Translations under genes and position numbers: made by a program
In this document: piece after piece, positions 2,612 through 62,467 of the stretch
Layout of the letters: the number at the start of each line of letters is the position of its first letter
Position numbering within the stretch: the first letter of the stretch is position 1
Notes under the pieces: generated by a model
Database searches by the model: none
What the model saw: the letters and a program-made list of their open reading frames with translations, nothing else
Told to the model about the DNA's origin: nothing
Origin: Minisyncoccia bacterium
GTDB taxonomy: Bacteria; Patescibacteriota; Minisyncoccia; Phycocordibacterales; UBA9973
Direction of reading: 5' to 3'
Assembly (NCBI GenBank): GCA_039809245.1
Contig: JBDHUP010000004.1
Location: 12,599-76,598 of the forward strand
Length of the DNA: 64,000 nucleotides

Positions 2612-2626
2612 TATAAACATATAAAA

Positions 2627-3169
2627 ATGAAAAAAATACTAATTATAATTCTCATAGTTGTTATTGCTGTATTCATTGGGAGTAAGCTTATTCCAAATAG
2701 TAAAAATATTAATACTCCAATACAAGAAGAAGGTAATAATGTATCAAAAGAAATAGATACCCCAATAAAAGAACAACCAGTAGCATGTACCATGGATGCA
2801 AAAGAGTGTCCTGATGGATCTTATGTGGAAAGAGTTGGACCTAAGTGCGAGTTTGCTATGTGTCCAACTCCTACAACTAACTCAACGACAGCATCAATAA
2901 ACCAATCTATATTTAATAATGGTGTATATATAAAACCTCTTGAAGTCCTAGAGGATAGTAGATGTCCTACAGGTGCAAACTGTATATGGGTGGGCACAGT
3001 AAAAATTAGAGCTAAATTATCGACAAATGATATTAGTCAAGAAATAATTTTAACACTCAATGAACCTTCATCTTTTGAAAATAAAAAAGTAACTCTAATA
3101 GGAGTTAGTCCAGAGTCAAATGGTAAACTGAAACCTTCAGATTATAAATTTACATTCTCTGTGAAGTAA
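2627..3169 (+). CDS. secreted Cys-containing hypothetical protein
   Basis: Signal-anchor N-terminus and several Cys pairs. No family call. Confidence 0.45.
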   Translation: MKKILIIILIVVIAVFIGSKLIPNSKNINTPIQEEGNNVSKEIDTPIKEQPVACTMDAKECPDGSYVERVGPKCEFAMCPTPTTNSTTASINQSIFNNGVYIKPLEVLEDSRCPTGANCIWVGTVKIRAKLSTNDISQEIILTLNEPSSFENKKVTLIGVSPESNGKLKPSDYKFTFSVK

Positions 3170-3172
3170 ATA

Positions 3173-3331
3173 CTATCTTTTCTTCTCTCGCCAATCGTAC
3201 TCTTCCTCTTCATCATCATTCTTATCTATAATAGGAGTACCACACTGAGCACAATGCGTATCATATGAGCGCAAGCCACAACGAGGACATACTGGGTCAC
3301 TTTTTTCTGTTTGTTCTATTTCTTCTTCCAT
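3173..3331 (-). CDS. small zinc-ribbon protein (52 aa, CPRCG...CAQCG)
   Basis: ORF hand-translated on the minus strand: MEEEIEQTEKSDPVCPRCGLRSYDTHCAQCGTPIIDKNDDEEEEYDWREKKR. It has two CxxC pairs and an acidic tail. It was missed by the ORF track because it is shorter than 60 aa. Confidence 0.4.
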   Translation of the reverse strand: MEEEIEQTEKSDPVCPRCGLRSYDTHCAQCGTPIIDKNDDEEEEYDWREKKR

Positions 3332-3480
3332 AGACAACTATTATACTATACTTTTATTTTTACAAAAATGTTATAATCTTCTCATTATTAGTAAACATTT
3401 TCTAAAATATCTATGGCAAAAGGAATGGGTGCGAGAAAAGAAAAGAAAAAACCAAAAGCTGCAAAGAAAAAGTAGCAAAC

Positions 3481-3512
3481 AAAAATCCCCACATTGCTGT
3501 GGGGATTTTTGT
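3481..3512. terminator. bidirectional rho-independent terminator
   Basis: Hairpin tccccaca-ttgc-tgtgggga flanked by an A-run and a T-run, downstream of the csp gene. Confidence 0.55.
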
Positions 3513-3521
3513 TTGCGTGTA

Positions 3522-3719
3522 TTATGCGCGTTGTACGTTTACAGCACTAGGTCCCTTTGCAGTTTCCTCAGTGTCAAAAGTAACAGCATCACCTTCACGT
3601 AGTTCGTCGAACTGAACGTTTACAAGAGAATTACTGTGGAAGAATAAATCCTTCGCAAGTCCTTCTGCTGTGATGAAACCGAAACCTTTATCAGTAAGCT
3701 TTTTTATTGAGCCAGTCAT
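3522..3719 (-). CDS. cspA: cold-shock protein, CspA family
   Basis: MTGSIKKLTDKGFGFI cold-shock domain with RNP1 motif. The longer track ORF (to 3812) is an upstream extension; Met32 is the likely start. Confidence 0.88.
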   Translation of the reverse strand: MTGSIKKLTDKGFGFITAEGLAKDLFFHSNSLVNVQFDELREGDAVTFDTEETAKGPSAVNVQRA

Positions 3720-3803
3720 GATTTTGATTAAGATAAATGATAAATATAAATAAGATAAATGTTCGAAAGTCGACTCTTCTAGAAGATACCCCTTATGCCC
3801 ACT

Positions 3804-3832
3804 ATAGTACAATTTCTTGAATTTTTTGTCAA
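3804..3832 (-). promoter_or_regulatory. sigma70-like promoter for csp (TTGACA-17-TACTAT)
   Basis: Near-consensus -35 and -10 elements with 17-nt spacing, about 80 nt upstream of the csp start. A long 5'UTR is typical for cold-shock genes. Confidence 0.45.
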
Positions 3833-3992
3833 TAGATTTATTTTAAAATGACTATAAATATTGACAAAATAAGCTACAAATGCTATTCTATACTCGTTGA
3901 AATACTCCGAAGTTACGTGTATATAAGTGTTTCAATTCATTGCACCAACTAGGCGCAATTATTTATTTTTGAAACACGTAAAACATAATATT

Positions 3993-12191: not shown

Positions 12192-13421
12192 TTATGGTCT
12201 TGCTTCTAATATACTGACCGCTTTATCAAGCTGAGGATCACGACCAGCATCTAAATCTTTTTGATTTATTGAAACTTCCACATCTGGATCTAGTCCATGG
12301 TCGGATATAGAGACTCCATTTGGAGTAAGCCATCTAGCAACTGTAATCTTGAGTGATGTATCATCTGTGATATCTACAAGTTCCTGAACTGAGCCTTTAC
12401 CGAAAGTCTTCTCCCCTACTAGTGTTGCAATACCATGCTCTTTTAGAGCTCCTGCAAGAATTTCGGAAGCAGAAGCAGATCCACCATCAACCAGAACAAC
12501 GAGTTGTAGTGACTTATCGAAAAGTTTTGGTCCGTGGCTTCTATAGATAATCGGCTTCCTATTTTCACCGAAATCTTCCGAGACTACAGTCTTACCTTGA
12601 TCGACAAACCAAGAAGCAATATTAACAGCAGCATCAAGATATCCACCAGGGTTACCTCTTAAATCTATAATAAGCTTGTGTGAACGGGTATCTATAAACT
12701 TTTGAAGCGCATCTTTAAATAAGTTAGCTGAATTCTCAGAGAAGCTATAGAACTTCAAAACGAAAATGTTATCATTACGGAATTCGGTATCAATAGTAGG
12801 AATAGCAATTTCATCGCGGGTAATCTTAAACTCACGAGTAGTCTTTTCTCCTGGGCGAAGAACAAGCAAGGTCACGATAGTACCTTTTGGTCCACGAATT
12901 AAATTAATAGCCTCGTCAACCGTCATTTCATTTGTAGCAGTTTTATCTATCTTAAGAATCTTGTCGCCAGACTTTAGACCTACCTTCATCGCAGGATTAT
13001 CTTTAAGTGGAGCAACAACTGTTAACACTTGATCTTTTATACCAACTTCAGCTCCTATACCTCCAAATGATCCTTTAATCTCGTCTGTGAAGAGCTTATT
13101 CTCTTCAGGTGGAAAGAATACTGTGTATGGATCTTTGAGTGATGATGCTAACCCTGATATTGCTCCATAGACTCTATCTTGGTCACTAATCTTTTTTGCA
13201 TATAATGATTTCTCATTTATCAGATTCCAAGCTTTCCAGAATGAATTGAAGTCTGCTGTTGTTTCTACTTGTGTATTTTTATTAGTTATAGAAAAAACTT
13301 TCTCTATTTCTGGCCTACGAGAGTAACCCATATATGTACCTAAACTAAAAACTCCTATGAGTAAGATCAAGGAAGTTAGCACATATATAGATGTTCGAAC
13401 ATTTTTTCTAGATATATTCAT
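12192..13421 (-). CDS. ctpA: carboxyl-terminal processing peptidase (S41 family, PDZ domain)
   Basis: PDZ (GLKSGDKILKID) and S41 catalytic region (GGSASASEILAGAL), with an N-terminal transmembrane anchor. Confidence 0.85.
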   Translation of the reverse strand: MNISRKNVRTSIYVLTSLILLIGVFSLGTYMGYSRRPEIEKVFSITNKNTQVETTADFNSFWKAWNLINEKSLYAKKISDQDRVYGAISGLASSLKDPYTVFFPPEENKLFTDEIKGSFGGIGAEVGIKDQVLTVVAPLKDNPAMKVGLKSGDKILKIDKTATNEMTVDEAINLIRGPKGTIVTLLVLRPGEKTTREFKITRDEIAIPTIDTEFRNDNIFVLKFYSFSENSANLFKDALQKFIDTRSHKLIIDLRGNPGGYLDAAVNIASWFVDQGKTVVSEDFGENRKPIIYRSHGPKLFDKSLQLVVLVDGGSASASEILAGALKEHGIATLVGEKTFGKGSVQELVDITDDTSLKITVARWLTPNGVSISDHGLDPDVEVSINQKDLDAGRDPQLDKAVSILEARP

Positions 13422-56185: not shown

Positions 56186-57319
56186 CTATTTTATGATCCT
56201 AGGTAGAAGTGGGTTTATTCGAGTCGTAACCTCATAGTTAATAGTTTGTGTTTTGTTAGCTATATCCTCAGAGGTTATAGTTTCACCCTTCTGGGAGCCC
56301 AGTATTACTACCTCATCTTCAGGTTTTACGCCCTTTATATGGCTTACATCTACTACGAACATATTCATAGCTACACGCCCCAAAATAGGTGCATTCTTCC
56401 CTTTTATTAAGACAGAGCCATTGTTTGAAGAGAGTCTGTTTACTCCGTTTGAATACCCTTGTGGGATGACAGCTATCATCATATTCTTTCTTGTTGTAAA
56501 TGAAGTCCCGTAGCCGATAGATTCACCGACTGGGATTTCTTTCACTTGAGCCACATGAGTGACATAGCGCATCACAGGCTTGAGCTCTATCTTCTTCTGC
56601 CACATTTTCTTCAAATTCTCACTTGGCCACATACCATAGAGTCCGACACCGACGCGGACAATAGCGTTGTATCCATTCCACTTCTCATAAGCGAGCACTC
56701 CAGAAGTTGCCGACATATGAGTCTTAATATTTTTGAATCCATTCTCTCTGAATAACTTTACGGCTTCTTCGTAAGCCTTGATCTGCTTTGACGCATAAGT
56801 GAAGTCAGTCGTATCTTCGATGTTCGCAAAGTGCGCATAGATTCCATCTACACTTATATTCTTCATCTTCTTTATTTCTTTTATGAAAGTCGCCACTTGC
56901 GAAGGAAGAATCCCCTCACGACCCAAGTGCGCATCGATACTGACATGCACTTTCTGCTTCACTCCTAATTTCCGAGCACTTTCATTTATAAGTAGTGCGT
57001 GGTGTAGATCAAACACAGTTAAAATACATCCGAGCTTTATGGCTTCTTTTATATCGCTCTTGCCTACGTAACCAAGAAGAAGTATCGGCTTCTTAGTAAC
57101 TTGTCGGACTTTCTCTAATTCTTCCACACTGTTTATCTGAAAATAATCTACATATGGAGCAAGAATCTTCACTACTTCCAAGTCACCGTGACCGTAAGCA
57201 TTAGCTTTCACCACTCCTGCAATCTTTGTCCCTCTTTTCACAATACGTCGAAACTGCTTGATATTATGGATCAGATTTTTCTTACTTAATTCTATATATG
57301 ATAATGGAAGACTTTTCAT
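56186..57319 (-). CDS. alr: alanine racemase
   Basis: PLP site VVKANAYGHG and a C-terminal beta domain. Start set at MKSLPLSY; the longer track ORF runs into tRNA-Leu. Confidence 0.85.
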   Translation of the reverse strand: MKSLPLSYIELSKKNLIHNIKQFRRIVKRGTKIAGVVKANAYGHGDLEVVKILAPYVDYFQINSVEELEKVRQVTKKPILLLGYVGKSDIKEAIKLGCILTVFDLHHALLINESARKLGVKQKVHVSIDAHLGREGILPSQVATFIKEIKKMKNISVDGIYAHFANIEDTTDFTYASKQIKAYEEAVKLFRENGFKNIKTHMSATSGVLAYEKWNGYNAIVRVGVGLYGMWPSENLKKMWQKKIELKPVMRYVTHVAQVKEIPVGESIGYGTSFTTRKNMMIAVIPQGYSNGVNRLSSNNGSVLIKGKNAPILGRVAMNMFVVDVSHIKGVKPEDEVVILGSQKGETITSEDIANKTQTINYEVTTRINPLLPRIIK

Positions 57320-57321
57320 TG

Positions 57322-57403
57322 TGCCGGAGGAGAGACTTGAACTCTCATCCCTTGCGAGACGCGATTTTGAGTCGCGCGCGTATACCAATTCCGCCACTCC
57401 GGC
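57322..57403 (-). tRNA. tRNA-Leu (anticodon CAA), class II with long variable arm
   Basis: GCCGGAG acceptor, 3-bp D stem, anticodon arm CGCGA-CTCAAAA-TCGCG, long variable arm, T arm GAGAG-TTCAAGT-CTCTC. 82 nt, no CCA. Confidence 0.85.
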
Positions 57404-57432
57404 ATACAAGAAATATACCTCAACTTAAGAAT

Positions 57433-58455
57433 TTAGACAAACTCGGGTTCGGTTTCAAGCTTGATGCCGAACTTATCAAATATTATTTTCGTTATCTCAT
57501 CTCGAACTTTCTCTACATCAGAGCGAGTTGCCCCACCGTTGTTCACGAGGACCATCGCATTGTTGGCATAAGAAGAAATAGTTCCGAAGCTTTTGCCTTT
57601 GAGTCCTGCTTGCTCAATTAGGAATCCTGATGGAACTTTCGTTTCAGTATCGCTAACTGGGAATACTACCATATCTGGATACTCATTCTTTAAACTCTTC
57701 GCGACACTTGCAGGCACAATAGTGTTCTTGAAGAATGACCCCACGCTCGGTATATCTTTCGGGTCTGGTAGTTTATTGCTTCGTATATGTATAATTGCTT
57801 CACGAATCTCTGATATTGAAGGATTATTAATATTGTTATCTATAAAATACCTTTTTACCCCGGGATAGTTAGGCATACTGGGTTTAGTTTTCTGAAGTCT
57901 TAGAGTTATAGAAGTTATCACATACTTCCCTCGTGCTTCCCCTTTGAAAATACTATTTCGATAAGAGAATCTACAGTCGCTATTGTTCAGGATTTTAAAA
58001 TCTCCATTTGCAATATCGTAAACTTCTACAGAAAGCAGAGTATCCTTTATCTCTTGGCCATATGCACCGACGTTCTGCACTGGTGTCGCACCCGCTGTCC
58101 CAGGAATTGCAGACATTGCTTCTATCCCTGATAGATTCATATCTACACTTCGCTTCACAGCACTGTCCCAATTCTCTCCGGCTCCAATTTTTATATCAGT
58201 ATACGAATCCGTATCATCTAGAACTTCAAAACCTAAAATATTTATTTTCAAAACGACAAAATTAAATAAACCATCAGGGAAAACCATATTCGATCCACCA
58301 CCGAGCACGAAAACTGGTAGATCTTTTTCTTTGGCAAATTTATACGCTTCTTCTAGATCATTCTTATCTGAAATCTCTACAAAATAGCGGAATTGCCCTC
58401 CAACTCGCAGTGTACAGTAGCTTTTTATATCCACATTTTCTTTAATCTCTAACAT
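57433..58455 (-). CDS. murB: UDP-N-acetylenolpyruvoylglucosamine reductase MurB
   Basis: FAD-binding LRVGGQ...VLGGGSN and MurB C-domain. Confidence 0.9.
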   Translation of the reverse strand: MLEIKENVDIKSYCTLRVGGQFRYFVEISDKNDLEEAYKFAKEKDLPVFVLGGGSNMVFPDGLFNFVVLKINILGFEVLDDTDSYTDIKIGAGENWDSAVKRSVDMNLSGIEAMSAIPGTAGATPVQNVGAYGQEIKDTLLSVEVYDIANGDFKILNNSDCRFSYRNSIFKGEARGKYVITSITLRLQKTKPSMPNYPGVKRYFIDNNINNPSISEIREAIIHIRSNKLPDPKDIPSVGSFFKNTIVPASVAKSLKNEYPDMVVFPVSDTETKVPSGFLIEQAGLKGKSFGTISSYANNAMVLVNNGGATRSDVEKVRDEITKIIFDKFGIKLETEPEFV

Positions 58456-58496
58456 CTTGCCATTATATCACATATGATATATAATCATCAAATATT

Positions 58497-60008
58497 ATGA
58501 AAAAACAATCAGATCAGCAAAAAATAGGCTTTTTTATTAAGGAATTAAGGGAAAAACGTAAATTAACCCAAGGAGCATTTGCCAAAGAACTAGGTACATC
58601 TCAGAGCGCCGTAGCCCGCATGGAGAAGGGTGAGCAGAACTTCACAACAGAGCTTCTGTCTAAAATAAGTACTGTCTTAGACCACCAGATAGTATCGATA
58701 AATGATTCTATAGATTTCCAAATCGTTGGTGGGAAGAAATTAAGTGGAAGTATTACAACCAGCTTCTCTAAAAATGGATCAGTTGGGCTTCTTTGTGCTT
58801 CCCTTCTGAATAAAGGTAAGACGACACTTCATGGTATCGCACGTATTGAAGAAGTTTATAGGGTTATAGAAATACTAGAGAGTATCGGTGTGAAAGTCTC
58901 TTGGATAAAGCAAAACTGTGTAGAAATAACACCGCCAAAGAAACTAAAACTTGAAAACTTGAACGTAGAGTCAGCGATAAAAACAAGATCTATAATTATG
59001 CTTATAGGTCCACTTATACATTTGCTTCCATCTTTCTCTATTCCCCACGCTTCGGGTTGCAACTTGGGTAAGCGAACTATCTCGGCACACAAATACGCTC
59101 TTGATGAATTGGGAGTTAAAATAAAAACTACAAATACATCCTACGACATAACAGTAAATACACTTAAGCCCGCAGACATAGTAATGTACGAGACTGGAGA
59201 TACCGCTTGTGAAAATGCTTTAATGGCTGCTGCCAAGATTGATGGTATAACAAAGATAGAGTGTGCTAGTGGAAACTACATGGTCCAAGAAGTTTGCTTC
59301 TTCTTGCAATCACTTGGAGTAGAGATTGAAGGTATAGGCACAGGTACTCTTACTATAAAAGGTAACCCTAATATAAATATGGATGCTGAATATCACAATA
59401 GTGAAGATCCTATTGAATCAATGATGTTTATATCTGCAGCTATCGCAACTGATTCTACTCTTACTATCAACCGCTGCCCTATCGACTTTCTTACGCTTGA
59501 ACTTTATAGATTAAAAAAGATGGGATTAAAATATAAAATCCTAAATAAATATCTATCGAAAAACGATAAAACAAAGCTCATAGATATAGAGATCCTGCCG
59601 AGTGTTCTGAAAGCTCCTTACGATAAAATCCACGCTAACCCATACCCAGGTATAAATATAGATAACCTTCCTTTCTTCGTGCCTATTGCTGTGCGTGCCG
59701 CTGGTACAACACTTATACATGACTGGTTCTACGAGAATCGTGCTATTTATGCTACAGAGCTTAACCGCCTAGGAGCAAGTGTTACTCTAGCCGACCCTCA
59801 CCGTGTATATATAACTGGTGGGACTCCTCTGACTTCAGCTCAAGTGGTCTGCCCTCCAGCACTCCGCCCTTCTATGGTTATCCTTATATCTATGCTTGCC
59901 GCAGAAGGTACTTCAATCCTTCGAAGTGTCTATATGATTAACCGTGGCTATGAAGATATAGCTCGTCGCTTGAACTCCATCGGTGCAGATATTACAATAC
60001 TTAAGTAA
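58497..60008 (+). CDS. murA: XRE-family HTH domain fused to UDP-GlcNAc 1-carboxyvinyltransferase MurA
   Basis: Residues 1-65 form a classic XRE HTH (LTQGAFAKELGTSQSAVARMEKG). The rest is the EPSP-synthase-fold MurA, with the catalytic Cys in SGCNLGKR and a C-terminal NRGYEDIARRL. Confidence 0.8.
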   Translation: MKKQSDQQKIGFFIKELREKRKLTQGAFAKELGTSQSAVARMEKGEQNFTTELLSKISTVLDHQIVSINDSIDFQIVGGKKLSGSITTSFSKNGSVGLLCASLLNKGKTTLHGIARIEEVYRVIEILESIGVKVSWIKQNCVEITPPKKLKLENLNVESAIKTRSIIMLIGPLIHLLPSFSIPHASGCNLGKRTISAHKYALDELGVKIKTTNTSYDITVNTLKPADIVMYETGDTACENALMAAAKIDGITKIECASGNYMVQEVCFFLQSLGVEIEGIGTGTLTIKGNPNINMDAEYHNSEDPIESMMFISAAIATDSTLTINRCPIDFLTLELYRLKKMGLKYKILNKYLSKNDKTKLIDIEILPSVLKAPYDKIHANPYPGINIDNLPFFVPIAVRAAGTTLIHDWFYENRAIYATELNRLGASVTLADPHRVYITGGTPLTSAQVVCPPALRPSMVILISMLAAEGTSILRSVYMINRGYEDIARRLNSIGADITILK

Positions 60009-60924
60009 TCTGCTTCTTAATTTTATATCCCTTACAATGTTTGAGTATACCTAGATACGATTGCTTTACTTCTGGTGGGACTTCTTTTTTGAATAGTCTT
60101 AACATTCGCTTCTTTGTATTTGTACGTAAGGTAGTATGGTAAGGAAAAATGACATACCCGAGGAAATCAATACCTTGAGACGCTTTCCTTATTTCTACTT
60201 TTCGTGGATGCAGAGATAATTTTAATTCAGTTTCTAAGAAATTAGAAACTCTTGGAATCAGTTTCTCTGTATATTCTCTATCTTTTGAGACTACTACAAA
60301 ATCATCACAATACCGGATATAGTGTTTTACTTTAAGTATATGTTTTACAAACTTATCAAATTCATTCAGATATACATTTGCAAAAAGCTGACTTGTGACA
60401 TTACCGAGCGGAAGACCACATCCTTTTGATTTTTCAAAACTTGAAATAATATTTTCAATCAACCAGTGAGTATCACGGTCTTCTATATACTTAAAAAGGA
60501 TATTTTTCAATATCACGTGGTTAATAGAGTCAAAGAACTTGGAGATGTCACACTTAAGCACCCAAATGTTCTGCGTATTATTCTTGCTTTCTTTGCGAAT
60601 GAATTCTCTAAGTCTTTCCACCCCTTTGTGCGTTCCTTTATTATTCCTACAAGAATATGAATCATAAATAAAAGTGGGGTCATATATTTTATACAATACT
60701 CGATATATTGCTTGATGTACTACCCTATCGCGAACATTCGCTTTATGTATATGCCGTCGCTTTGGATCATAAACATAGAAAGGGATATATGGCTGATTCT
60801 TATATATCTTATCTCGTAAGTTATAATGAAGATTGAATATATTACTCTCTAAATTAAAATCAAATTCTAAAACATCCTTCTTTTTATTCTTGCCTTTTTT
60901 GAATTCCCACCAAGCACCAAGCAA
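60001..60924 (-). CDS. DGR reverse transcriptase (N-terminus interrupted by a G10 tract; as called, it starts at TTG)
   Basis: RT motifs 1-7, including LPLGNVTSQLFANVYLNEFD (DGR hallmark [ILV]GxxxSQ, closely matching Bordetella phage bRT) and YCDDF. An ATG at 61009 becomes in-frame with 9 instead of 10 G. Confidence 0.85.
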   Translation of the reverse strand: MLGAWWEFKKGKNKKKDVLEFDFNLESNIFNLHYNLRDKIYKNQPYIPFYVYDPKRRHIHKANVRDRVVHQAIYRVLYKIYDPTFIYDSYSCRNNKGTHKGVERLREFIRKESKNNTQNIWVLKCDISKFFDSINHVILKNILFKYIEDRDTHWLIENIISSFEKSKGCGLPLGNVTSQLFANVYLNEFDKFVKHILKVKHYIRYCDDFVVVSKDREYTEKLIPRVSNFLETELKLSLHPRKVEIRKASQGIDFLGYVIFPYHTTLRTNTKKRMLRLFKKEVPPEVKQSYLGILKHCKGYKIKKQIT

Positions 60925-60966
60925 ATTTTCAATTGATATGATATTATTAAAAACACCATGAGTATA

Positions 60967-60976
60967 CCCCCCCCCC
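60967..60976. repeat. homopolymeric C10/G10 tract
   Basis: Ten consecutive C on the plus strand in a roughly 33% GC context. It lies inside the probable 5' coding region of the RT. Confidence 0.9.
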
Positions 60977-61051
60977 GACAGAATTATTGAGCTTCCTATC
61001 CTTGGTCATATAAAGAGATTATATAAAATCTTGTACCAAATAGGAATGAAA

Positions 61052-61339
61052 ATGCCTAAAAATAATAAACTCGGTATTCATAATGTTTTACAAGAAAAGT
61101 GTCTTGAAATACTTACGACTGTCGTAGATGCTTCACTTCGTTCAAAACAAGATAAAATTCCTTATCTTGTAAAAGCTCGTAGAGATATAGAAGTACTTAA
61201 ACATTTAGTTCGAATGGAGTACGAATTAGAAATCATAACAGAGAAGACATATCTAGCTAGTGCGCATATATTGCAAGACATTTCAATGATGGCAACAGGC
61301 TGGCAGAAATCACTGCAAACACAAAAGCCCTTGATGTAA
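61052..61339 (+). CDS. avd: Avd-like DGR accessory protein (putative)
   Basis: Basic helical protein of about 95-100 aa ending 25 nt upstream of the TR. RBS AGGAA lies before Met8. Orientation is opposite to the RT and target. Confidence 0.4.
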   Translation: MPKNNKLGIHNVLQEKCLEILTTVVDASLRSKQDKIPYLVKARRDIEVLKHLVRMEYELEIITEKTYLASAHILQDISMMATGWQKSLQTQKPLM

Positions 61340-61363
61340 ATCAAGAGCTTTTACGAGAAACTT

Positions 61364-61472
61364 CTGACGTGGACCGTTGTCGGGATTGCGATTGTCACGA
61401 TTGTCGTTGCTCACGTTGAACTGGTCATTGTCATTACGGTTCATGTTCAAAGCGTTGCCGTCGGAATCAAGT
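61364..61472 (-). repeat. DGR template repeat (TR)
   Basis: 109-nt repeat. In target-gene sense it reads ...GGC AAC GCT TTG AAC ATG AAC CGT AAT GAC AAT..., with 14 AAY codons. It is invariant relative to the VR except at A positions. Confidence 0.8.
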
Positions 61473-61702
61473 CTCTGTATGTAGTCATCTTTATCTCCGT
61501 GTATCGTTTACACAACACACTGTGTTATCTAGCTCTTTACTAGTCTTTGTTTAGAATCTTAATTTAATTCCCTAACTACATACAGGCAGTTTCTAAATAT
61601 TGGCGAACCGTCATCTCTTTAAAGATCAGCTCAACAGCCGTTTATAGTATATATAAAAAATTCCCCTTGGCAAAATAAATTGCAAAGGGGAAAAGTTAAA
61701 AG

Positions 61703-62467
61703 CTACGCAGTTTTAGAAAGCTTAAGCTGACGTGGACCGTGGACGGGATAGCGATTGACACGAAGGCCGAGGCACACGTTGAACCGGTCATAGTCATAAC
61801 AGAGCATGCCCAAAGCGTAGCCGTCGGAATCAAGTGCATGGAAGCGGGTCAAACCTTTTACGTCCAACATGTTGCCTGTTTCAAACCTTTCACGGAAAGC
61901 GGCAATAATACCTTCTTTCGGAATCATGTAATCGTTGCCATCATTGCAAAAATCATCATAACTCTTATTGAGGTGCTCTGTATCAGGCTCGATAGTTCCT
62001 GCCCAAGCAAAGCAATAGTTGCCTTTTGGACGATCCTGCTGTGTATCTATTGCATTATCCGGATTCTGCGAATATGAATTGCTGGAAACTTTATCGTCAC
62101 CAAATTTTTTCTTATAAGCAGTAATATATCGCTTGCAATTAAAACCTGCGTGAACGTATTCCAACCGCGGAAATTTTTTATCATATTCGGGTAATGTTGT
62201 GGTAGACCAGTCTATAATATGATTGAAGTTGCTTTTGTAAAAGCGTTCAATCTTTTTCTTCTGGTCAGCCCAAGGGTCAATTTCTATAGCAAGTAATTTT
62301 GCTACAATTTTAGCCGTGGCGTTTTCAACAAGTTTTTCATCTCCGAGAATTTGTTGCATTTCTCCTAAATTGAAATGTCCATCAATGGCATTAATAACAC
62401 CATTGGAAATAGTGAGGCCTAAGCGTGCATATTGCGCGCCAGTAGCCGGGATTTTCGCGTTGTTCAT
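61703..62467 (-). CDS. DGR target (variable) protein, 254 aa, VR at C-terminus
   Basis: The ORF's last roughly 45 codons include the VR. About 20 TR/VR differences, all but one at TR adenines. Confidence 0.75.
   Translation of the reverse strand: MNNAKIPATGAQYARLGLTISNGVINAIDGHFNLGEMQQILGDEKLVENATAKIVAKLLAIEIDPWADQKKKIERFYKSNFNHIIDWSTTTLPEYDKKFPRLEYVHAGFNCKRYITAYKKKFGDDKVSSNSYSQNPDNAIDTQQDRPKGNYCFAWAGTIEPDTEHLNKSYDDFCNDGNDYMIPKEGIIAAFRERFETGNMLDVKGLTRFHALDSDGYALGMLCYDYDRFNVCLGLRVNRYPVHGPRQLKLSKTA
61727..61835 (-). repeat. DGR variable repeat (VR)
   Basis: Direct-repeat partner of the TR, encoding ...LDSDGYALGMLCYDYDRFNVCLGLRVNRYPVHGPRQ. The TR encodes N at most varied codons. Confidence 0.8.

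Follow-up and report, generated by a model that had tools for sequence, protein, structure and literature searches.

A helix-turn-helix domain fused to MurA, and a conserved palindrome on its promoter, point to a probable self-regulating peptidoglycan enzyme in Patescibacteria

Why should an enzyme of cell-wall synthesis carry a DNA-binding domain? The question is raised by a 64,000-nucleotide stretch of a Minisyncoccia bacterium genome (assembly GCA_039809245.1, contig JBDHUP010000004.1, positions 12,599 to 76,598; hereafter the window, whose own coordinates are used throughout), in which one continuous gene encodes an XRE-type helix-turn-helix (HTH) domain followed by a complete MurA, the enzyme of the first committed peptidoglycan step and the target of fosfomycin. 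An initial annotation of this DNA had called the architecture unusual and proposed that it serves either autoregulation or the tethering of MurA to DNA. We compared the gene, its promoter and its relatives, and we think it probable that the protein is a bifunctional trigger enzyme, a competent MurA that would repress both murA and the divergent murB through its own HTH. The features of the window on which this proposal rests are the following, with ORF standing for open reading frame and AF2 for AlphaFold2.

58497..60008, forward strand: HTH-murA gene, ATG start, 503 residues, stop codon included (ORF list, Pfam and NCBIfam matches)
58512..58679, forward strand: XRE/Cro-C1-type HTH domain, residues 6-61 (HTH_3, AF2 helices, PDB sequence matches)
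58680..58712, forward strand: linker, residues 62-72, DHQIVSINDSI (low AF2 confidence, pLDDT <50 at residues 66-70)
58713..60005, forward strand: MurA domain, residues 73-503 (PRK09369, 305.7 bits; match to the 5ujs MurA, E 4e-52)
59058-59060, forward strand: TGC codon of the catalytic Cys188 (aligned to E. coli C115)
57433..58455, reverse strand: murB, UDP-N-acetylenolpyruvoylglucosamine reductase (Pfam FAD_binding_4 and MurB_C)
58464..58481, both strands: putative operator, a perfect 18-bp palindrome of the form TATATCA-CATA-TGATATA (motif scan and comparison)
58457..58485, forward strand: predicted murA promoter, TTGCCA-17 nt-TATAAT (promoter scan, 11/12)
58462..58491, reverse strand: predicted murB promoter, TTGATG-18 nt-TGaTATAAT (promoter scan, 10/12 with TG)

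In the encoded protein, a linker of about 10 residues joins the HTH (residues 6-61) to a complete MurA (residues 73-503). Pfam places HTH_3 at residues 14-62 (E 5e-13, 49.3 bits, cutoff 23) and EPSP_synthase at residues 78-492 (E 6e-38), the latter spanning profile positions 3-417 of 417, and NCBIfam assigns residues 74-501 to the PRK09369 subfamily of MurA (305.7 bits, cutoff 297). Together with the ORF list, these matches bear out the in-frame fusion claimed at the outset. Codons 60-79, which cross the junction between the two domains, read gtc tta gac cac cag ata gta tcg ata aat gat tct ata gat ttc caa atc gtt ggt ggg; as the initial annotation had noted, neither a stop nor an alternative Met separates the parts, and there is no in-frame GTG or TTG either. 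Because no start codon lies at the junction and the first Met beyond it is M168, deep within the MurA domain, separate translation of MurA is ruled out, and an internal start yielding a stand-alone enzyme was rejected.

The 41-bp gap between the start of murB (58455, reverse strand) and the start of murA (58497, forward strand) contains the perfect 18-bp palindrome TATATCACATATGATATA. This sequence occurs once in the window, where shuffling predicts 0.00 occurrences. The centre of one 7-bp arm lies 11 bp from that of the other, roughly a helical turn, which would suit a dimer bound along a single face of the DNA. The predicted murA -10 element (58480-58485) overlaps the right arm and is followed 11 nt later by the ATG; the predicted extended -10 of murB (58467-58462) overlaps the left arm, with the murB ATG 6 nt past it. 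From these distances we infer that the murA and murB mRNAs are leaderless or nearly so. MurB catalyzes the next step of the pathway, and its gene, which diverges from murA and is followed by a tRNA-Leu gene and alr, is a likely co-regulated target. General tethering of MurA to DNA is not favoured, because the window holds a single specific site and this site is placed exactly on the promoter.

We then sought relatives of the fused gene. The best 120 homologues in a collection of 5.8 billion proteins all combine HTH_3 with EPSP_synthase (75-100% identity, 499-510 residues), and one of them is 100% identical and lies on an independent 79.7-kb contig. Homologues of about 503 residues number in the hundreds and come from NCBI, JGI, ENA and Logan assemblies, and a library of representatives at 50% identity contains fused proteins down to 32% identity. 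When species-representative genomes were scanned with the recognition-helix pattern SQSA[VI][AN]R[IM]E, at least 592 relatives of the N-terminal query were confirmed. The best 80 of these, each taken as a locus of about 12 kb, formed our comparative set; all 80 align across the HTH-MurA junction, and in 79 a continuous fused ORF, usually of 500-515 residues, could be delimited. They come from Paceibacterota, Nomura-, Zambryski-, Uhr-, Doudna-, Taylor- and Liptonbacteria, Gracilibacteria and many Saccharibacteria, including Nanosynbacter; the window (35.9% GC) is nearest to Paceibacterota/Nomurabacteria genomes (L002-L006). The fusion is thus the usual form of MurA in much of Patescibacteria, and the view that it is unusual has to be given up.

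Unfused close relatives do exist, among them P0122 (58% identity, 443 residues) and P0123. A split into two genes elsewhere would have called the fusion into question, but the case does not hold: P0122 and P0123 are genuinely unfused, and their loci contain neither an adjacent HTH gene nor the palindrome. Loci L087 and L088 are those of two unfused relatives without the site. We read the unfused genes, from their sequences, as cases of domain loss or non-acquisition rather than as a split gene.

To compare promoters, we built a symmetrised operator matrix from 51 seed sites (consensus TATATCAYATRTGATATA) and scanned all 808,653 bases of the related loci at a threshold of at least 10 bits. Within 280 bp upstream of the fused gene there are 83 matches, found in 73 of the 79 loci, versus 6 in the other ~786 kb. 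The palindrome carries 1.6-2.0 bits of information at 14 positions, with flanks at about 0.1-0.5 bits, and its outermost TA/TA positions, which the seed left unconstrained, are 94-98% conserved. Its centre lies at -6 to -251 from the start codon (median -19), and the site is retained irrespective of the gene upstream, be it murB, glyA (in Saccharibacteria), parB, uvrD or a co-directional transporter gene. In about 17 of the related loci murB is the divergent neighbour, and in 36 of the 79 it is found no more than 6 kb away. Presence and absence are concordant: fused genes have the site, and two unfused relatives do not. These comparisons strongly support autoregulation of the fused gene, as had been proposed, insofar as it can be judged from sequence.

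Several loci depart from the simple arrangement. In the Saccharibacteria loci L059, L061, L063-L066, L069 and L076, an extra half-site of the left type (TTATATCATTG) lies about 10 bp upstream of the full palindrome, and in the Doudnabacteria-like loci L027, L040 and L052 two full sites lie 60-90 bp apart; such additions may be cooperative or dual operators. The fused protein P0121 (53% identical) is encoded in locus L209, on an 876-kb contig with 69.7% GC (GCA_018603905.1), among MerR, GyrI-like, AMP-binding and ECH genes, a neighbourhood atypical for Patescibacteria. In this 70%-GC genome the AT-rich variant ATCTCATATGTGAGAT (L209 4970-4989) stands immediately upstream of the fused gene and behind a co-directional gene. 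In the window itself the only other match to the matrix is weak (ATGTATCATCTGTGATATCT, 15.4 bits, 12356-12375); it lies inside a coding region, in the 3' part of an S41-peptidase-like ORF (12192-13421, reverse strand), and was rejected as a second operator and judged to be chance.

Further evidence on the palindrome comes from a different kind of operon. Using the palindrome as a pattern (16 specified bases, AT-rich), we scanned metagenomes and obtained at least 125 sites. Among those listed, at least 23 lie beside HTH-MurA genes, 7 of them also beside murB; at least 14 lie beside operons of a Gp49/HigB-like toxin (PF05973) and an XRE antitoxin of about 100 residues; and at least 7 lie beside small XRE proteins. 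Over 59 residues the antitoxin HTH and that of the window share 47% identity and 75% similarity, and their recognition helix is the same, T-x-QS-x-[IV]-ARME-x-G-x-QNF. Autorepression is the established mode of type II antitoxins. A palindrome common to both groups, at the promoter in 73 of the 79 fused loci and also at the related antitoxins, is comparative evidence in favour of autoregulation. In the toxin-antitoxin operons of L114, L115, L141, L175, L177, L178, L197 and L200, the palindrome directly follows a TTGACA -35 element, and the centre and right arm of the palindrome encode the first codons of the toxin, ATG ATA TA. (M-I-Y); with the toxin start inside the palindrome, leaderless toxin-antitoxin transcripts are implied.

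The HTH has the properties expected of a DNA-binding domain of this family. An AF2 monomer model of the full-length protein, a prediction the initial annotation had suggested making, yields the HTH helices (residues 6-20, 25-32, 36-43 and 51-61) together with the MurA fold (mean predicted local distance difference test, pLDDT, 87.4; predicted template-modelling score, pTM, 0.81). The predicted recognition helix, at about residues 36-43, lies inside the conserved motif TSQSAVARMEKGEQNF. Besides HTH_3, the domain matches the Pfam families HTH_31, HTH_19 and HTH_26, and every protein that it matches by sequence in the PDB at E<=1 is a DNA-binding XRE protein: PezA, HipB-type antitoxins, C.AhdI and other restriction-modification controllers, SinR, P22 C2 and the 434 repressors. 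Fused proteins with overall identities of 32-50% all have T34, S35, Q36, S37, A38, R41, E43, G45, Q47 and N48 unchanged, even where the MurA part is only 29-40% identical. Across 40 close homologues, 24 of 56 HTH positions (43%) and 173 of 431 MurA positions (40%) are invariant; HTH identity tracks MurA identity across the 79 genomes, and distant fused members still have the linker motif h-x-h-[IVL]-S-[IL]. By these measures, constraint is equal on the HTH and on the enzyme domain.

The MurA half looks catalytically competent, judged from its residues. It is 30% identical to E. coli MurA (b3189), and in the alignment E. coli K22, N23, R91, C115 and R120 correspond to K92, N93, R164, C188 and R193 of the window protein, and D305, L370, R371 and R397 to D389, L456, R457 and R483; the catalytic Cys that had been recognized in SGCNLGKR is therefore C188. 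The 122 close homologues and the 73 full-length fused proteins that were analysed all have these catalytic residues too. Foldseek matches the AF2 model to more than 40 solved MurA structures at TM-scores of 0.85-0.91; none of the solved MurA structures matched by Foldseek or by sequence has an N-terminal HTH. Relative to E. coli, the MurA domain has an insertion of about 14 residues near residues 355-375. The 64-kb window contains neither a second murA nor a second copy of the HTH.

From these elements a simple circuit can be proposed. The N-terminal HTH would bind the 18-bp palindrome TATATCAYATRTGATATA on its own promoter, presumably as a dimer, and the bound protein would occlude the -10 elements of both murA and murB and so block RNA polymerase. 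As MurA accumulates, the genes for the first two committed steps of peptidoglycan synthesis would be transcribed less, a negative feedback in which the fusion would tie the concentration of the repressor exactly to that of the enzyme. It is common for XRE regulators to control themselves by binding, as dimers, palindromes that precede their own ORF (PMC12565409). The fusion, the conserved residues, the fold, the specificity of the motif, its overlap with the promoters and the HTH-operator pair common to antitoxins are computational results; DNA binding, dimerisation and repression rather than activation are inferred here. That the ligand state of MurA (open, closed with UDP-GlcNAc, or the dormant complex with UDP-MurNAc and phosphoenolpyruvate described for other MurAs, PMC9975281) tunes DNA binding, as substrates and products do in BirA and RbkR, is speculative.

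Several observations weigh against this proposal. MurA is generally regarded as monomeric. The window protein scores below the cutoff of the TIGR01072 equivalog model (295.1 bits, cutoff 392.7), and E. coli D369 is replaced by Pro or Ala, depending on the alignment, within an invariant CPPALRP; the window covers 64 kb of the genome, and a second, unfused murA elsewhere is possible. Six of the 79 loci have no scoring site (one has no upstream sequence, and three retain the right half only). A divergent gene lies upstream in 57 of 69 loci with the site, and part of the conservation of the palindrome could come from a symmetric bidirectional promoter in which the right arm, TGATATA(AT), is an extended -10. 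Finally, about two-thirds of the listed metagenome sites adjoin unrelated, unclassified or spurious ORFs; chance matches to the palindrome are expected in a collection of that size.

Could the promoter account for the palindrome altogether, as back-to-back extended -10 elements ATTATATCA / TGATATAAT of a symmetric bidirectional core promoter, with the HTH acting otherwise? Each arm is overlapped by a predicted -10 hexamer, TGATATAAT matches an extended -10 perfectly, start codons lie mostly 6-12 nt past the right arm, and the frequency of divergent upstream genes fits as well. We nevertheless consider this unlikely, since the ~786 kb with 6 matches must hold hundreds of promoters, against the 83 matches upstream of the fused gene; the left arm is perfect in 12 loci despite a co-directional upstream gene; the palindrome is kept in the 70%-GC genome, again behind a co-directional gene; conservation extends to the spacing of 4 bp and to the YATR centre, but not to the distance from the start codon; toxin-antitoxin operons, which are unidirectional, pair this palindrome with an HTH of the same subfamily; and unfused murA relatives lack it. 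Nor is it probable, and we would rank it slightly lower still, that the protein is mainly a transcription factor whose MurA domain senses a ligand while the real MurA is encoded elsewhere. Enzyme-dead fused paralogues do exist, one of them beside a stand-alone murA-murB operon, and the TIGR01072 score, the loss of D369 and the 64 kb of visible genome could be taken in the same sense. Yet, D369 apart, no tested catalytic residue is missing from the window protein or from any of the 73 full-length fused orthologues, in contrast to the dead paralogues, which have lost most; no second murA lies in the window; and the MurA domain is conserved at the level expected of an essential enzyme. The D369 replacement (window 59856-59876, residues 454-460, PPALRPS) is clade-wide, and it is unlinked to the fusion because unfused relatives (P0122-P0124, P0131) have it too; it also occurs in unfused close relatives that are the sole EPSP-fold gene of their loci. 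The D369N change is associated with fosfomycin resistance.

The HTH might also serve as a protein-protein module. The XRE-like HTH of RodZ binds MreB, a precedent for XRE-like HTH domains that do not bind DNA, and the HTH could likewise tether MurA to cell-wall or cytoskeletal proteins; in Firmicutes, moreover, MurA is controlled through the protein partners IreB/ReoM (PMC12077105). We regard such a role as improbable: the Pfam matches include no RodZ-type family and the PDB matches at E<=1 no RodZ, only DNA-binding repressors and antitoxins; the invariant residues concentrate in the recognition helix; the window HTH leads directly into MurA, unlike the RodZ layout with its transmembrane segment; and the conserved palindrome, with an operator common to antitoxins, would be left unexplained. 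Even less likely is an RNA hairpin in a 5' leader, acting as a translational operator or stability element. A 7-bp hairpin could form if the palindrome were transcribed, and symmetric variants such as TATCTCA...TGAGATA resemble compensatory changes, which are equally expected for the site of a homodimer; the hairpin is weak (-4.1 kcal/mol, z = -0.01 versus shuffles) and without an Rfam match, the predicted -35 and -10 elements put the left arm upstream of the transcription start, and it is the primary sequence that is nearly invariant, not pairing alone. An RNA element was rejected as unlikely on the weak hairpin and the missing Rfam match. As for the idea that an assembly error or frameshift joined two genes, we found nothing in its favour and give it practically no credence; no such fault appears at the junction, and the idea is refuted by the identical protein on an independent contig, the hundreds of homologues, the continuous ORF in 79 species-level genomes and the conserved linker. 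With the same architecture of about 503 residues in hundreds of independent assemblies, read support across the junction is not needed.

The trigger-enzyme proposal also draws on genomes in which the two halves appear to have gone separate ways. Seven divergent fused representatives (P0129, P0130, P0137, P0141, P0144, P0206 and P0256) have lost most catalytic residues and retained the HTH. P0129 diverges from a stand-alone murA-murB operon and lies upstream of ddl and a Mur ligase gene; the stand-alone MurA beside it keeps K22, N23, R91, C115, R120, D305 and R397, and the 60-bp intergenic region (L082) contains TTGACA-ATATATCATATATGATAT. In the case of P0206, the palindrome stands 4 nt ahead of its start. 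The loci of enzyme-dead HTH-MurA-like genes with a palindrome are:

L082 4624-7503 (also L083 and L084): enzyme-dead HTH-MurA-like locus with palindrome
L085 1451-2952: enzyme-dead HTH-MurA-like locus with palindrome

The split of a bifunctional ancestor into regulator and enzyme would be expected to leave a dead paralogue beside a stand-alone murA, and from its sequence the P0129-type protein resembles a pseudo-enzyme regulator descended from the fused form. In locus L032, a second palindrome (3913-3932, 24 bits), about 2 kb from the fused murA, lies immediately upstream of a gene for a murC-like Mur ligase (2616-3911, reverse strand), which suggests a regulon that extends beyond murA and murB in some genomes. 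The sites thus fall at genes of the protein's own pathway, as is the case for trigger enzymes: murA, murB, the murC-like ligase of L032 and the stand-alone murA-murB of L082.

The closest parallel in function is RbkR, the archaeal riboflavin kinase, which also carries an N-terminal DNA-binding domain on an enzyme of its own pathway, represents the principal or sole orthologue in whole phyla (some lineages have secondarily become monofunctional), binds palindromes upstream of pathway genes and was discovered by comparative genomics (PMC5397151). It differs in having a MarR-type winged HTH rather than an XRE domain, and in belonging to cofactor metabolism and to Archaea. DNA binding by RbkR and its control by ligands (CTP activates, FMN inhibits) are experimental findings (PMC5397151), whereas for HTH-MurA the first is predicted and the second speculative. 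BirA, PutA and NadR (Commichau & Stulke 2008, cited in PMC5397151) resemble the proposed HTH-MurA in joining a catalytic to a DNA-binding domain and repressing their own pathways; they differ in their DNA-binding folds (winged HTH, ribbon-helix-helix) and in their enzymes. In BirA, a reaction intermediate drives dimerisation and operator binding. The known trigger enzymes all belong to vitamin/cofactor or amino-acid metabolism and none to cell-wall synthesis (PMC5397151), so that one in the peptidoglycan pathway would be a new case.

Canonical MurA (E. coli b3189; PDB 1uae, 5ujs) has the fold, the catalytic residues and the association with murB in common with the window MurA and differs in being without the 72-residue N-terminal HTH and linker. 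The known control of MurA is post-translational, through a dormant complex with UDP-MurNAc (PMC9975281) or through IreB/ReoM-ClpCP proteolysis or inhibition (PMC12077105), and does not involve a DNA-binding domain on the enzyme itself. The enzyme-dead HTH-MurA-like paralogues, in which the enzyme fold probably serves as the ligand-sensing domain of a transcription factor, are paralleled by NrtR-type regulators, with their enzyme-derived effector domain and HTH (PMC2330246); NrtR has a Nudix fold and a C-terminal winged HTH, and the window protein, unlike it, still looks catalytically competent.

The HigA-like antitoxins of Gp49/HigB operons resemble the window HTH in sequence and recognition helix, as described above, and have the identical palindrome TATATCAYATRTGATATA at the operon promoter. 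They differ in being stand-alone proteins of about 100 residues encoded after a Gp49 toxin, whereas HTH-MurA has an enzyme as its C-terminal partner. No Gp49/HigB toxin gene lies beside HTH-murA in the window, where the neighbours are murB and a reverse transcriptase gene; the window protein is not an antitoxin. The HTH and its operator were probably captured as one unit from a Gp49/HigB-HigA-type toxin-antitoxin module. A fuller scenario would combine a ligand-gated HTH-MurA, in which the state of the MurA domain (free, closed with UDP-GlcNAc, or dormant) would determine how tightly the HTH dimer holds its operator, precursor levels feeding back directly on murA, murB and sometimes murC throughout Patescibacteria, the capture of a HigA-type HTH with its operator, and repeated later splits into a pseudo-enzyme regulator and a stand-alone MurA; we offer this combination tentatively and doubt that all its parts hold together.

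Downstream, murA adjoins a complete diversity-generating retroelement (60001-62467), in which 18 of 19 differences between template and variable repeat fall at template adenines. The 8-nt overlap of murA with the convergent reverse transcriptase ORF, reported in the initial annotation, agrees with the coordinates, and the reverse transcriptase does belong to a genuine retroelement of this kind. On the other side of murB lies a tRNA gene. These neighbouring features are:

60001-60924, reverse strand: reverse transcriptase ORF of the retroelement (RVT_1)
61031-61339, forward strand, opposite to the other ORFs of the element: bAvd-like ORF (37.5 bits, cutoff 40)
61364-61472: candidate template repeat
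61703-62467, reverse strand: 254-residue ORF without a Pfam match, carrying the variable repeat
61727-61835: variable repeat, at the 3' end of the 254-residue ORF
57321-57403, reverse strand: tRNA-Leu(CAA), between murB and alr

The 407-residue ORF listed as alr (56186-57409, reverse strand, TTG start) extends through this tRNA-Leu; because it overruns the tRNA gene, the real start of alanine racemase is probably an internal Met (MKSLPLSY...).

The HTH-MurA domain architecture is itself visible in public annotation. Where the homologues have database names, these are only 'UDP-N-acetylglucosamine 1-carboxyvinyltransferase', from Patescibacteria, Paceibacterota or Nomurabacteria, and such names hide the regulatory half of the protein. 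A full-text literature search, of incomplete coverage, found neither a published description of an HTH-MurA fusion nor a trigger enzyme in peptidoglycan synthesis.

Patescibacteria have few transcription factors and are mostly uncultivated. Relatives of Nanosynbacter-type Saccharibacteria have been cultivated on host bacteria, and since Saccharibacteria of this type carry the circuit, the prediction is experimentally testable. The HTH and operator of a toxin-antitoxin module have apparently been reused as a unit for housekeeping regulation, and enzyme, bifunctional form and pseudo-enzyme regulator are found side by side in related genomes. If the proposal is true, no earlier trigger enzyme would precede HTH-MurA in cell-wall synthesis, and its control of murA and murB would join the very few regulatory circuits legible in Patescibacteria genomes directly.

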